A stretch of DNA of 64,000 nucleotides, taken from the sequence record PQ826431.1, one strand, 5' to 3'. The position numbers and the translations under genes are program-made. Shown piece by piece: positions 61,108 to 64,000 of this stretch. Below the pieces are notes generated by a model that worked only from the letters and a program-made list of their open reading frames with translations, made no database searches and had not been told where the DNA came from. The DNA is from a phage. Within the stretch, counting starts at the first letter, position 1. Every line of letters begins with the position of its first letter.

Positions 61108-61356
61108 ATGTCTCTATTAGAAAAACACGTGTTTGAAGATGGTAACGGCAATGCAGTTTTTCTTTTCCATCCAGAAAAATACACATCTGAAAACAATGGT
61201 ACAACTTCTATTGTAATCACTAAAGATGTTAAAGTTATTGATTTCTTGGCTCTGATGCGAGAGATGGATCTTGAAATTAATACTTTTAACGCAGAAGCTT
61301 TGGTTGTTGCTCTTCTGGAAAAGAAAGATAGTGAAGAAGTAGCAGAATATGCTTAA
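61108..61356 (+). CDS. hypothetical protein (82 aa)
   Basis: track ORF trimmed to ATG after RBS TAGGAGGAACA. Confidence 0.55.
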   Translation: MSLLEKHVFEDGNGNAVFLFHPEKYTSENNGTTSIVITKDVKVIDFLALMREMDLEINTFNAEALVVALLEKKDSEEVAEYA

Positions 61357-61364
61357 ATAACTAT

Positions 61365-61393
61365 TGACAAACGTATCCTTCATATGTTAGGAT
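61365..61393 (+). promoter_or_regulatory. promoter (TTGACA-17-TAGGAT, ATGT box)
   Basis: same promoter class as 61951, 63038, 63803. Confidence 0.5.
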
Positions 61394-61600
61394 ACGTTCA
61401 TCAAGTGTGGTAACAGGGTCGTTGACTTTTGTTAAGAGGGGCTTGCACTGCGGTAGTGTTAGAGACTACTTCTTCAGAGGTTAGCTACCAAAGAGGAAAA
61501 GGAATAGTCTCGGCTCAAGAACTTTTACGCTGAAAGTTGGGCTTGGTCTTAGAGAATGTAGCGGTTCTCTACAATCGTCAGCGTCTCTGTTACCACATTT
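61394..61600 (+). ncRNA. candidate structured leader / small stable RNA upstream of tRNA cluster
   Basis: no ORF; several local hairpins and long-range complementarity GTGGTAACAG / CTGTTACCAC at its ends. Confidence 0.3.
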
Positions 61601-61602
61601 AT

Positions 61603-61677
61603 GGCCCTGTAGCTCAATGGGAGAGCTGTCGGCTCATAACCGATAGGTAGCTGGATCGAAACCAGCCAGGGCCACCA
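61603..61677 (+). tRNA. tRNA-Met (anticodon CAT; initiator/elongator/Ile2 not resolved), incl. CCA
   Basis: manual cloverleaf: acceptor GGCCCTG/CAGGGCC, D GCTC/GAGC, anticodon loop CTCATAA, T-arm GCTGG-ATCGAAA-CCAGC. Confidence 0.8.
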
Positions 61678-61679
61678 AC

Positions 61680-61754
61680 GTCTTTATGGTGTAATGGATA
61701 GCACAGGAGTCTTCTAAACTCTTAGTCAAGGTTCGATTCCTTGTAAAGACACCA
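61680..61754 (+). tRNA. tRNA-Arg (anticodon TCT), incl. CCA
   Basis: manual cloverleaf: acceptor GTCTTTA/TAAAGAC, anticodon loop CTTCTAA, T-arm CAAGG-TTCGATT-CCTTG. Confidence 0.8.
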
Positions 61755-61950
61755 GAACATTTTAACATGAATTAGCTCAAGTGATTTGAACCCACTACTG
61801 ATCATGGTGGCAGAGAATGAGGCAAGTATGTCAGACATTATAAACAAAGGCCACGGTTATATTAGAAGACATAAATGCTCGAAGAGCACCGTTCGTTGAG
61901 AACGGGGGTTGGTGGAGTCACCATTCATGGTAAAATGTTTTAAAAAACTA

Positions 61951-61979
61951 TTGACAACTAACATTATTTTATGTTAGAT
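61951..61979 (+). promoter_or_regulatory. promoter (TTGACA-17-TTAGAT)
   Basis: consensus -35; upstream of tRNA-Ser. Confidence 0.5.
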
Positions 61980-61988
61980 TATAAGTAT

Positions 61989-62079
61989 GGAAGGGCAAAT
62001 CGACGTGGCGACGAAAACGGTCTTGAAAACCGCCGAGCTTGAAAGAGCCTTGGGAGTTCGACTCTCCCTCCTTCCGCCA
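61989..62079 (+). tRNA. tRNA-Ser (anticodon TGA), type II long variable arm, incl. CCA
   Basis: acceptor GGAAGGG/TCCTTCC, anticodon loop CTTGAAA, variable-arm hairpin GCTT-GAAA-GAGC, T-arm GGGAG-TTCGACT-CTCCC. Confidence 0.7.
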
Positions 62080-62084
62080 GATTA

Positions 62085-62170
62085 GGTAGATTGGTGAAAT
62101 GGTAGCCACAACAGTTTGCTAAACTGTAGTCGGAAACGGCGTGTAGGTTCGAGTCCTACATCTACCGCCA
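62085..62170 (+). tRNA. tRNA-Ser (anticodon GCT), type II, incl. CCA
   Basis: acceptor GGTAGAT/ATCTACC, anticodon stem ACAGT/ACTGT loop TTGCTAA, T-arm GTAGG-TTCGAGT-CCTAC. Confidence 0.75.
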
Positions 62171-62303
62171 AGTTCTTTTTAATATAGCTTACTTTAATAG
62201 AGTAAACTTTCAGCAGATGGCCCCCCCACCATCTTACTGATAACTCATAGTTAGTGGTGTGAACACTGGCTATTTTAAAAAGAATTTTAAATATTAGTAT
62301 TTA

Positions 62304-62391
62304 GGTGAGTTAATTCCGTAGGGGTAGCGGGGCAGACTGTAAATCTGTTATCATTGCGATTCGGGTGGTTCGACTCCATCACTCACCACCA
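62304..62391 (+). tRNA. tRNA-Tyr (anticodon GTA), type II, incl. CCA
   Basis: acceptor GGTGAGT/ACTCACC, anticodon loop CTGTAAA, long variable arm. Confidence 0.7.
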
Positions 62392-62397
62392 AATTAA

Positions 62398-62483
62398 GAT
62401 GAGTTGGCTGAATGGTTTAAGCGGCGGACTGTTAATCCGTGTTCGAAAGAACGATATAGGTTCAAATCCTATACTCATCGCCA
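62398..62483 (+). tRNA. type II (long variable arm) tRNA; manual fold gives anticodon GTT (Asn), identity uncertain
   Basis: acceptor GATGAGT/ACTCATC, 3-bp D stem, anticodon stem GCGGA/TCCGT loop CTGTTAA, variable hairpin GTTC-GAAA-GAAC, T-arm ATAGG-TTCAAAT-CCTAT. Confidence 0.5.
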
Positions 62484-62490
62484 GAATTAT

Positions 62491-62567
62491 GGACTTGTAG
62501 AGTTAAGGTAAACCCCCAGTCGCCAAGAGGCTTCTGGAATTGCAGGTATCGAATCCTGCCGAGTCCC
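62491..62567 (+). tRNA. tRNA-like element with non-canonical anticodon domain (possible pseudo-tRNA)
   Basis: acceptor GGACTTG/CGAGTCC and T-arm-like GCAGG-TATCGAAT-CCTGC present, but no 5-bp/7-nt anticodon arm. Confidence 0.3.
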
Positions 62568-62686
62568 AGAAAAGAAACAGGGTCGCTCCCTGTAAGTCGT
62601 CCAACTGAAGCCCACTGCGGTGTTCCTCCTCCCACAGTTTAACTGTGTTCTGGTCAACATCAAGCATGGTTGAAGGGGCGCAATAT

Positions 62687-62762
62687 GCTTCAATAGCTCA
62701 GTTGGTAGAGCACTTGCCTTGTAAGCATGAGGTCGTAGGTTCGAGTCCTACTTGGAGCACCA
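62687..62762 (+). tRNA. tRNA-Thr (anticodon TGT), incl. CCA
   Basis: D-arm TAGCTCAGTTGGTAGAGCA, anticodon loop CTTGTAA, T-arm GTAGG-TTCGAGT-CCTAC; one T-T mismatch in anticodon stem. Confidence 0.75.
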
Positions 62763-63037
62763 ACACAACATTAAGAGCACTGTGATTGATCGTCGTATCC
62801 TGTGCACAAGGTCTGTTCGAAAGACAGTGTTCTTAGTATTGTGTTGATCACACAAAAAGAGTCACCTGAAACTTGACCGGAGTAGGGTTGGATGGGGTAA
62901 AAGAAGAAGCGGCTCTCCCATCGACAGCAACGAAGAATAATATTTGACTTTGGTTTTGTATTATTTTAAGTTAGCTTACCGAACGTAGGGCTAGTCACCC
63001 AATGGGATACTCGTCACTGTCCCACTCAATAAAACTA

Positions 63038-63068
63038 TTGACAACCAATAGTAAAATGTAGTATAGTA
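63038..63068 (+). promoter_or_regulatory. promoter (TTGACA-17/18-TATAGT)
   Basis: consensus -35; upstream of tRNA-Gly. Confidence 0.5.
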
Positions 63069-63078
63069 AAGAGGTAGG

Positions 63079-63152
63079 GCGTTCTTGGTGTAGCGGTAGC
63101 ATTCCGTCCTTCCAAGTCGGCGGCACGAGTTCGATCCTCGTAGAACGCTCCA
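63079..63152 (+). tRNA. tRNA-Gly (anticodon TCC), incl. CCA
   Basis: acceptor GCGTTCT/AGAACGC, anticodon loop CTTCCAA, T-arm ACGAG-TTCGATC-CTCGT. Confidence 0.75.
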
Positions 63153-63250
63153 AATTATTTAATAAAGGGTTGCCAGAAAACTTTCTCTTTTACTCATGGT
63201 TTTCTCCTTCTCTCACACCTCTTCTGGTTGCCCTTCATTAAATGATTTAT

Positions 63251-63326
63251 TGGTTTGTAGTGTAGTCAGGTAGCACACGACACTTTGACTGTCGTAGGTT
63301 TGGTTCAAATCCAGACAGACCAGCCA
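63251..63326 (+). tRNA. tRNA-Gln (anticodon TTG), incl. CCA
   Basis: acceptor TGGTTTG/CAGACCA, anticodon stem CGACA/TGTCG loop CTTTGAC, T-arm TTTGG-TTCAAAT-CCAGA. Confidence 0.7.
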
Positions 63327-63331
63327 TATAA

Positions 63332-63408
63332 CGGAATTTAGCTCAGTTTGGTAGAGCATACGCTTTGGGAGCGTAGGGTCGCAGGTTCGAATCCTGCAAT
63401 TCCGACCA
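63332..63408 (+). tRNA. tRNA-Pro (anticodon TGG), incl. CCA
   Basis: acceptor CGGAATT/AATTCCG, anticodon stem TACGC/GCGTA loop TTTGGGA, T-arm GCAGG-TTCGAAT-CCTGC. Confidence 0.8.
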
Positions 63409-63414
63409 ATTTAA

Positions 63415-63488
63415 TGTTTCGTAGTTCAATGGTAGAACCCACGACTGATAATCGTGAGACACAAGTTCGATTCTTGTCGAAACAACCA
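63415..63488 (+). tRNA. tRNA-Ile (anticodon GAT), incl. CCA
   Basis: acceptor TGTTTCG/CGAAACA, anticodon stem CACGA/TCGTG loop CTGATAA, T-arm ACAAG-TTCGATT-CTTGT. Confidence 0.75.
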
Positions 63489-63490
63489 AT

Positions 63491-63560
63491 TTCCCGTTAG
63501 ACTTACAGGATAAGAGTTCCACAACTTATTGTGATGCTGGTTCGAATCCAGCACGGGATA
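63491..63560 (+). tRNA. tRNA-like element with degenerate anticodon arm (possible pseudo-tRNA); no encoded CCA
   Basis: canonical T-arm GCTGG-TTCGAAT-CCAGC and acceptor TTCCCGT/ACGGGAT but anticodon region forms CACAA-CTTA-TTGTG hairpin (4-nt loop). Confidence 0.3.
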
Positions 63561-63566
63561 CCTAAT

Positions 63567-63645
63567 AGCGGGATAGAGGAGTCTGGTCGTCCTCGCCAGT
63601 TTCATATGCTGGAGATCATTGGTTCAAATCCAATTCCCGCCTCCA
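63567..63645 (+). tRNA. tRNA-Met (anticodon CAT), second copy, incl. CCA; A1-C72 unpaired
   Basis: acceptor AGCGGGA/TCCCGCC, anticodon stem CCAGT/GCTGG loop TTCATAT, T-arm ATTGG-TTCAAAT-CCAAT. Confidence 0.65.
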
Positions 63646-63760
63646 AATATCGCTTGCCAGCGGTATCTTTGAAGACCTTGCCTGGTTCCTTCTAAGATGG
63701 AGGGGTGCGACTCCTTAACGCACAATTATAATAAAGCATTTCAAATTAACAGTATTTATT

Positions 63761-63785
63761 AGCCTCCTTATTGGAGGCTTTTTGC
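63761..63785 (+). terminator. intrinsic terminator after tRNA cluster
   Basis: hairpin AGCCTCC-ttatt-GGAGGCT + TTTTT. Confidence 0.7.
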
Positions 63786-63802
63786 TATCTATTGAATAAA
63801 AC

Positions 63803-63831
63803 TTGACTTATTATTTTTTATATGTTAAGAT
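63803..63831 (+). promoter_or_regulatory. promoter (TTGACT-17-TAAGAT)
   Basis: same class as tRNA-region promoters. Confidence 0.5.
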
Positions 63832-63852
63832 AAAGTTTAGGAGGATTTTATT

Positions 63853-64000
63853 ATGCCTAAACTAAAACGTGGTCGTGGAAGACCAACAGCCGAAATGCAA
63901 CAGATTTACGCAATGGATGCGGCGCAAGCAAGTGTAAAAGAATTATTTGCAGAGCATTATTTAGAAGCTATGCGGTATATTGTTGAACTTGTTAATGATA
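63853..64000 (+). CDS. AT-hook-containing protein, 5' partial (runs off window)
   Basis: ATG after RBS TAGGAGGATTTT; MPKLKRGRGRPT N-terminus; no stop within window. Confidence 0.5.
   Translation, partial: MPKLKRGRGRPTAEMQQIYAMDAAQASVKELFAEHYLEAMRYIVELVND

Follow-up and report, generated by a model that had tools for sequence, protein, structure and literature searches.

Two non-decoding tRNA-derived RNAs in the tRNA cluster of a Phapecoctavirus: a member of an apparently uncurated phage RNA family and a tRNA relic

Phage transfer RNA (tRNA) clusters matter for escape from tRNA-cleaving immunity, and attention has so far been directed to their decoding tRNAs. Other small RNAs are found there as well: species I (rnaC) and species II (rnaD), the stable RNAs of phages T4 and T2, are small and unexplained, lie in the tRNA cluster and are co-transcribed with tRNAs. 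Non-decoding RNAs that mimic the upper body of a tRNA and are handled by tRNA enzymes are known too, such as YrlA (a bacterial Y RNA-like molecule) and the mammalian mascRNA. In transfer-messenger RNA (tmRNA), the acceptor and T-arm of the tRNA-like domain frame a large non-tRNA insert, and the domain comes from a tRNA whose synthetase ignores the anticodon. The present analysis concerns two elements in the tRNA cluster of sequence record PQ826431.1, of which a stretch of 64,000 nucleotides (nt), the window, was analysed. The genome is that of a Phapecoctavirus (phAPEC8-like, Stephanstirmvirinae), positions 61300-64000 being 98-99.5% identical to many such phages. Both elements are tRNA-derived, non-decoding and co-oriented with the tRNAs, and they are two different things. 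Element 1 reveals a phage RNA family that is apparently uncurated, within the known kind of tRNA mimics or tRNA-derived stable RNAs; element 2 is a tRNA relic.

Ten tRNAs, all on the + strand, are called by ARAGORN between 61603 and 63645, and Rfam adds tRNA-Ser(TGA) at 61989-62075 and tRNA-Tyr(GTA) at 62304-62388. The two elements lie in line with them on the + strand, at 62491-62567 and 63491-63560, where a preliminary description of this DNA had placed them. Automated tools do not fold them as ordinary tRNAs: ARAGORN on the window calls neither, and the Rfam tRNA model RF00005 matches neither at E <= 10, with 11 neighbouring tRNAs scoring 39-74 bits. No Rfam family covers either element when the window is searched at permissive E-values. 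The comparison with related phages that had been proposed finds both conserved, with compensatory changes, and both unannotated in ABPW7, Mt1B1_P17 and the tRNAscan-annotated ASO2A. A canonical anticodon arm (5-bp (base pair) stem, 7-nt loop, U33, purine 37) is absent from both, as first described, and neither has a usable anticodon loop: element 1 carries an extended bulged hairpin, element 2 a 4-nt loop on CACAA/UUGUG.

Other parts of the preliminary description hold for one element each. The 7-bp acceptor stem is that of element 1 (with one G-U pair); in this genome, that of element 2 has only 6 bp, 1:72 being a terminal U-U mismatch. The canonical T-arm is that of element 2, a perfect GCUGG-UUCGAAU-CCAGC with a 7-nt loop, whereas the T-loop of element 1, UAUCGAAU, has 8 nt. 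This loop and a D-arm of the tRNA-Leu type had been overlooked, and the two elements had been treated as one kind, while element 1 is a member of a widespread family and element 2 belongs to a separate small lineage.

Element 1 starts 7 nt after the end of tRNA-Asn and is built as follows.

62491..62567, + strand: element 1, a 77-nt anticodon-less tRNA-like RNA of the '8-nt T-loop / tRNA-Leu-type D-arm' phage family (covariance model R1, fold)
62491..62497, + strand: acceptor 5' strand GGACUUG, pairing with 62560-62566 (fold, R1; 7/7 family pairs covary)
62498..62515, + strand: U8-A9 and class-II-type D-arm GAG-UUAAGGUAAA-CCC (R1 model alignment)
62516..62537, + strand: middle hairpin replacing the anticodon and variable arms (fold)
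62542..62559, + strand: T-arm GCAGG-UAUCGAAU-CCUGC, its 8-nt loop being the family hallmark (exact 18-mer counts)
62560..62567, + strand: acceptor 3' strand CGAGUCC and discriminator C, CCA not encoded (sequence, fold)

In the acceptor GGACUUG/CGAGUCC, pair 3:70 is A3:U70; the D-loop retains GG, and a U (position 48) precedes the T-arm. The middle hairpin, 22 nt long (CCAG-UC-GCC-AAGA-GGC-UU-CUGG), consists of the helix CCAG/CUGG, a 2x2 internal loop, the helix GCC/GGC and an AAGA tetraloop, which is AAUA in the copy of the divergent relative L008. The fold has a z-score of -3.6, and 0/200 shuffles were equally stable.

Blastn finds element 1 conserved in Phapecoctavirus alone. The exact 18-mer of its T-arm, GCAGGTATCGAATCCTGC, is present in 98 IMG/VR viral contigs of 5-545 kb with unrelated flanks. 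In most family elements, the 7 nt 3' of the T hairpin are perfectly complemented 43-265 nt upstream. An independent anchor is the conserved motif U-G-GCGGAA...AGACGC directly after the 5' acceptor strand: in 59 elements, all 7 nt preceding this D-arm motif pair with the 7 nt that follow the T-arm, compared with 1.45 in the permuted control. In a 32-sequence alignment (A3), the acceptor is 100% paired and has a covariation score of 0.625 (0.147 in shuffles); double changes are seen at 7/7 pairs, a count with some circularity, since members had been selected by their pairing, so that the D-arm-anchored pairing is the independent test. Acceptor pairs 1-6 occur as all four Watson-Crick types, G7:C66 is conserved, and the T-stem variants GUAGG/CCUAC and GUGGG/CCCAC are compensatory.

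The family D-arm consensus is U8 G9 GCG GAAxxUAGA CGC, with U8, G9, G10-C11-G12, A14 and A15 near-invariant, and a U stands directly 5' of the T-stem in 70/72 members. With bacterial class II tRNA-Leu the family shares the 7-bp acceptor, U8, G9, the 3-bp D-stem GCG/CGC and the 5-bp T-stem, besides G13, A14, A15, A21 and U48; some members have the exact D-arm GGCGGAAUUGGUAGACGC. Unlike tRNA-Leu, its members have no anticodon arm and no defined variable arm. Both are replaced by an insert of 20-250 nt, the whole RNA measuring 67-329 nt. Moreover, the T-loop has 8 nt, most members are without G18G19, the discriminator is not a fixed A (A31/C19/U15/G7, n = 72), and tRNA finders skip the members. 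CCA is encoded in 9/72, N-1 is a U in 37/72, and position +1 is a G in 49/72.

The covariance model R1 was made from 32 members, with every Phapecoctavirus copy excluded. On 4 kb, its best match is exactly 62491-62567, full length, at 43.8 bits (E = 1.5e-9). The next matches are genuine class-II-shaped tRNAs, tRNA-Ser(GCT) at 26.7 bits and the long-arm tRNA-Asn at 21.9 bits. For element 2, the score of 10.7 bits (E = 0.2) is not significant and no better than those of ordinary tRNAs. Over all viral loci, R1 gives full-length matches in nearly all. Two unannotated members are found in cultured phages: one of 120 nt in Lactobacillus phage SAC12B (37.7 bits), and one of 67 nt in cyanophage S-CAM9 (36.9 bits), between tRNA-Leu and tRNA-Thr, with CUCU-UCGG-AGAG as its middle mini-hairpin and UAUCAAAU as a variant T-loop. 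The D-arm of the family is also that of a genuine tRNA-Leu from a Rhizobium phage, which for this reason scores 33 bits. This identity indicates that the element 1 family is derived from class II tRNA-Leu.

R1 also uncovers tandem 'sibling' copies of 99-178 nt that are without the 18-mer. Their D-loop, with G18G19, is the canonical one of tRNA-Leu, and their T-loop has the canonical 7 nt; the anticodon arm is missing, and A73 is found in 4/6. Among the R1 matches, 56 combine an 8-nt T-loop with a D-loop without GG, 6 have GG and a 7-nt loop, none has a 7-nt loop without GG, and 16 have GG and an 8-nt loop, although in several of these 16 the GG lies in stems. Element 1 itself is of the last type, with GG kept and an 8-nt T-loop. 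In these combinations the extra T-loop base goes with loss of the D-loop GG, which would make a remodelled, self-contained elbow. In some viral contigs, two copies stand in tandem (L015:605-739 and 895-1040; L075:438-541 and 695-831; L102:1468-1645 and 1808-1918; L099:997-1090 and 1096-1194), one having a canonical elbow, with GG in the D-loop, a 7-nt T-loop and A73, and its partner the 8-nt T-loop.

In 596 Gb of bacterial and archaeal genomes, the T-arm 18-mer has 24 matches, about 17 being estimated by chance. About 10 of the 24 have the family D-arm, and these are contigs of metagenome-assembled genomes (MAGs) or prophages. With cellular matches so few and of this nature, the family is essentially phage-restricted. 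It occurs in tRNA clusters and alone, as 38/56 family loci have no tRNA within the locus. The genes next to it serve various parts of DNA metabolism and share its strand; by eye, the top neighbour clusters resemble a methyltransferase, an intein-containing clamp loader, ThyX, a dCTP deaminase, a RuvC-like protein and a GIY-YIG endonuclease. Several members run straight into a terminator-like U-run. A gapped scan for D-arm plus T-loop gave one true new member (L137) and three chance matches. An Rfam search of 17 family loci at permissive E-values matched no family. Literature on phage tRNA-like RNAs and anti-defence decoys and surveys of structured RNAs gave no description of the family, the surveys not being searchable by sequence. 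Two other origins were considered and ruled out: a phage attachment (attP) or integration site, as the 5' acceptor strand is always present and covarying, and an intron-containing tRNA-Leu, as the flanks yield no anticodon arm and no intron model matched.

Within the genus, five relatives, among them the divergent L008 and L085, have copies of element 1 with no more than 1 nt changed. Four of these five carry another allele of the neighbouring tRNA-Thr (25-33 differences), and the spacers adjoining element 1 are likewise very different in L008 and L085. These are per-feature counts of cleanly aligned elements, the whole-cluster MAFFT alignment being unreliable for the rearranged segments of L085 and L008. 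Constraint on element 1 is thus not relaxed relative to the neighbouring tRNAs. The preliminary description had considered pseudo-tRNAs; judged by its conservation, element 1 is under strong constraint and part of a phage RNA family that is widespread, and hence not one, whereas element 2 does look partly eroded.

Element 2 starts 2 nt past tRNA-Ile and ends 6 nt before tRNA-Met.

63491..63560, + strand: element 2, a 70-nt tRNA-like RNA of a separate small lineage, with a 4-nt anticodon loop (fold, homologs)
63502..63514, + strand: non-canonical D hairpin CUUA-CAGGA-UAAG, 2 nt off the canonical D-stem register (RNAalifold consensus)
63520..63533, + strand: anticodon-position hairpin CACAA-CUUA-UUGUG (fold, homolog comparison)
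63536..63552, + strand: canonical T-arm GCUGG-UUCGAAU-CCAGC (sequence, fold, homologs)

The fold has a z-score of -3.05, and pair 3:70 is C3:G70. The family T-arm is absent, the loop having 7 nt and the stem being different. Homologs are found in about 75 Phapecoctavirus genomes, in four Vequintavirinae (A73, W70, UPEC06, LTH01), in phiEB49 and in SonariX-like phages. The 'tRNA-Val(AAC)' of phiEB49 and the borderline tRNAs of SonariX type are direct homologs, with 74-80% identity. They have in common with element 2 the acceptor, the D hairpin CUUA-NNGGN-UAAG and the T-arm, but possess anticodon loops of 7-9 nt, an encoded CCA and scores of 24.6-33.3 bits on the Rfam tRNA model, whereas element 2 has its 4-nt loop, the U-U at 1:72 (7 bp in its relatives) and no tRNA-model match. 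Across the homologs, the acceptor, the offset D hairpin and the T-arm are conserved. The D hairpin is invariant in 14/15, that of SonariX being CUUAA-UGG-UUAAG. The stems of the acceptor, anticodon and T arms have all undergone compensatory changes, the anticodon-position stem still pairing through A-U/G-U/G-C/C-G changes.

The anticodon loop shortens from 9 nt in SonariX to 7 in phiEB49, 5 in Vequintavirinae, 4 in the window and 3 in phiWec190. Rfam tRNA scores fall from 33.3 bits in SonariX through 26.4 in L189 and 24.6 in phiEB49 to no match for element 2. In 11 Phapecoctavirus copies, a sample picked for divergence at element 2, variable columns number 8/71 in element 2 (with its stems preserved), 1/74 in tRNA-Ile and 4/79 in tRNA-Met. 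From the divergent relative L085 element 2 is apparently absent. By this graded loss of tRNA score, these variable columns and this absence, element 2 is, as judged from its homologs, the eroded end of an atypical tRNA lineage, its fold kept under constraint that appears weaker. Broad D-arm pattern scans for element 2 returned nearly only chance matches in coding sequence; the only real ones are those in L008, L010, L189, L210 and L233. The homolog in L144 (Escherichia phage ESCO25) has an extra T-loop A, GCUGG-AUUCGAAU-CCAGC, and thereby an 8-nt T-loop; this may be a sequencing error or an independent case of the change seen in the element 1 family.

None of the described small RNAs is the same as these elements. 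Neither has sequence homology to T-even rnaC or rnaD. By eye, rnaC has a T-arm-like hairpin, CCGGG-UUCAAAU-CCCGG, near its 3' end, but its T-loop has 7 nt and there is no tRNA-Leu D-arm. Blastn matches to T-even rnaD run from about 62566-62572 to 62654, with a 2-nt overlap at the boundary of element 1 in one record. The family resembles the tRNA-like domain of tmRNA in framing a large insert and in coming from a tRNA whose synthetase ignores the anticodon; tmRNA, however, has the G3:U70 alanine identity, a tag reading frame and pseudoknots, and the family shows no preference for G3:U70. ARAGORN and the Rfam tmRNA models give no match at elements 1 and 2, nor do the Rfam YrlA and mascRNA models match either element at E <= 10. 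In YrlA, moreover, the termini form a Ro-binding helix, while here they are the acceptor stem itself.

On balance, both elements are non-decoding tRNA-derived RNAs and probably tRNA mimics matured by tRNA enzymes, element 1 belonging to a phage-restricted family derived from tRNA-Leu and element 2 being an eroded member of a separate lineage. The following signals flank them.

61364, + strand: promoter-like site
61951..61980, + strand: promoter-like site TTGACA-18-TAGATT, TG-extended, upstream of the element 1 unit
63038..63067, + strand: promoter-like site TTGACA-18-TATAGT, 11/12 matches, upstream of the element 2 unit
63761..63779, + strand: intrinsic-terminator-like hairpin and U-run at the end of the tRNA cluster (annotated terminator in ASO2A)

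Lying on the same strand, these sites place both elements inside tRNA transcription units, and both would be transcribed with the phage tRNAs from + strand promoters. Since both are tRNA-derived and co-transcribed in line with tRNAs, the processing by RNase P and RNase Z that had been proposed for them is plausible. Most likely they are excised by RNase P and 3'-trimming, with CCA added, like their neighbours, because an acceptor helix (7-bp or 6+1) stacks on the T-arm in each; the acceptor/T minihelix and the U-1/G+1 bias of the family both point to such maturation. Element 1 retains the tertiary core of tRNA-Leu (U8, G9, a 3-bp D-stem, A14, A15 and U48, as the family is described) and could accumulate as a stable tRNA-shaped molecule that binds a tRNA-binding partner and stays out of translation. 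Candidate partners are a processing enzyme, a modification enzyme, a synthetase and a tRNA-targeting defence factor. Mimicry of a tRNA is the most likely mode because the conserved part is precisely the 'upper body' of acceptor, T-arm and D-core.

A tRNA-shaped RNA without an anticodon is kept near-unchanged across a whole genus of therapeutic-candidate E. coli phages. RNAs of the same design are encoded by phages of cyanobacteria, by Lactobacillus phages and by many uncultured viral contigs, in many cases as a solitary gene; Rfam has no model for them, and the GenBank records inspected are blank at their positions. If the target is a host defence or a tRNA enzyme, this would explain 'mystery' small RNAs of phage tRNA regions, a question that goes back to species I and II of T4. 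More tentatively, element 1 might represent an undescribed, phage-wide class of anticodon-less, tRNA-Leu-derived RNAs with a remodelled elbow, acting as a leucine-charged molecule or as an uncleavable competitor. The siblings might then keep the full identity set of leucyl-tRNA synthetase (LeuRS), and the competitor might be aimed at host enzymes or defence nucleases that recognise class II tRNAs, details that are just as tentative. Such a class, if real, would be a new category of phage counter-defence or translation-hijacking RNA.

Several points weigh against tRNA mimicry by a conserved family. The 3-bp D-stem of element 1 includes one A-C mismatch. That the T-stem hardly varies is in part a matter of ascertainment, as the members were sought by exact match. 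Large inserts have compensatory changes of their own (L014 vs L018), so that the insert and not the scaffold may be the working part. Clustering of the neighbouring genes in 98 loci gave no recurrent partner protein, and the family may perhaps already be among the uncharacterised candidate RNAs of the surveys. The maturation and stability of both elements are predictions from their shape. Finally, single genomes show changes at canonical tertiary positions of element 2 (G18 to A, a T-loop insertion, a loop deletion) that fit decay as well as function.

Decay of both elements is indeed one alternative: they would be dead genes without function, persisting only inside an essential transcription unit. 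For element 2 this agrees with the higher number of variable columns than in the flanking tRNAs, the lesions at G18, T-loop and anticodon loop, the apparent absence from L085 and the graded loss of score, yet its stems stay paired through compensatory changes in three phage groups. Element 1 does not fit, with at most 1 nt of difference in all relatives examined and a family that has the 8-nt T-loop and a strongly covarying acceptor in common and spans phages whose hosts are unrelated. For the pair, decay is unlikely.

It is likewise rather improbable that the Leu-like frame is a chassis for excision and protection, with the insert (a small RNA, an aptamer or a protein-binding hairpin) as the functional part. 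The constant frame around an insert of such variable length would be expected, and insert hairpins are kept by compensation (GUGUGG/CCACAC vs GAGG/CCUC, CGCA-GAAG-UGCG vs CGCG-GUAG-CGCG). The many loci without a nearby tRNA also suggest that the RNA is kept for its own sake. However, the minimal members, with the tetraloop hairpin of S-CAM9 and the 22-nt hairpin of element 1, leave little room for a payload, and no insert matched any Rfam family.

A purely cis-acting role is quite unlikely. The elements would then punctuate processing as RNase P or RNase E/Z sites, or form a protective 3' end, with no function in trans. Their co-orientation with flanking genes and tRNAs, the members leading directly into a U-run and the N-1 U and G+1 preferences, which fit RNase P substrates, are all compatible with it. 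In the window, though, the neighbours are tRNAs with their own processing sites 2-7 nt away, and punctuation needs no conservation of an 8-nt T-loop or a tRNA-Leu D-arm across phyla.

Very doubtful, at least for element 1, is that these RNAs are leucylated independently of an anticodon, for a tmRNA-like role, as amino-acid donors or as sponges for LeuRS. To our knowledge, only the Leu, Ser and Ala identities are independent of the anticodon in bacteria, and the family scaffold stems from one of them. The family keeps the identity core of tRNA-Leu (U8-A14, A15-U48, the class-II D-stem). LeuRS can dispense with the anticodon arm, identity being decided by A73 and the tertiary core (PMC2377443). 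The idea is attractive for the siblings, with their G18G19, 7-nt T-loop and frequent A73. In the Aquifex system, however, C73 cut leucylation 48-fold, and T-loop integrity is critical for LeuRS (PMC2377443). Element 1 has C73, an A discriminator is found in only 31/72 members, most are without G18G19, and the T-loop is altered in all.

Finally, that the elements are unusual real decoders, such as frameshift or nonsense suppressors with odd anticodon loops, is extremely improbable: relatives of element 2 do have CUUAA-containing loops of 7-9 nt (SonariX-like AACUUAAGA, phiEB49 UUAACAA), the phiEB49 copy being annotated as tRNA-Val and the SonariX copy passing the Rfam tRNA threshold, but the loops in the window (4 nt in element 2, a closed AAGA tetraloop in element 1) can present no anticodon, so that the fold nearly refutes decoding for this genome, and even close relatives differ in the sequence and length of the loop.

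The rest of the cluster has some unusual members. Two class II tRNAs, at 61989-62079 and 62304-62391 (+ strand), are missed by ARAGORN: tRNA-Ser(TGA) is matched in Rfam only as tRNA-Sec, at a sub-threshold 37 bits, and tRNA-Tyr(GTA), at 39 bits, is flagged 'tRNA-Pseudo-GTA' in some GenBank records. The tRNA-Asn(GTT) at 62398-62483 (+ strand), of 86 nt, combines a long variable arm with a D-arm of class-II type, which is unusual for a tRNA-Asn and raises the question of which synthetase charges it. Another such chimera of body and anticodon is found in a viral contig (L067:4243-4325), a class-II-shaped tRNA with a Leu-type body and the anticodon loop CUGCAAA (GCA, Cys). The last tRNA of the cluster, tRNA-Met(CAT) at 63567-63645 (+ strand, 79 nt), has a long D-loop, and its 1:72 pair is non-standard. 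In phAPEC8 and Mt1B1_P17 it is labelled 'tRNA-Pseudo-CAT', and its T-stem shows a compensatory change, UUGG/CCAA to UCGG/CCGA, among relatives.

Directly downstream of element 1, at 62569-62685 (+ strand), lies a homolog of the T-even rnaD (species II RNA), about 80% identical to that of T2/T4-type phages. Its first hairpin differs from theirs by a compensatory change (CAGGG/CCCUG vs CCGG/CCGG). Only 7 Phapecoctavirus-type records (e.g. ABPW7, 536P1) have this RNA, as an insertion of about 113 nt relative to most relatives. Beside it, tRNA-Thr(TGT) at 62687-62762 (+ strand) differs at 25-33/76 positions in 4/5 Phapecoctavirus relatives examined, which suggests that a cassette of rnaD and tRNA-Thr may have been swapped in by recombination. 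Four spacers of the cluster, on the + strand, have very stable folds with long terminal closing helices and no Rfam match: 61755-61940 (z = -4.2), 62171-62285 (z = -4.2), 62763-62844 (z = -3.3) and 63153-63247 (z = -5.7). By these predicted folds, they are further candidate small RNAs.

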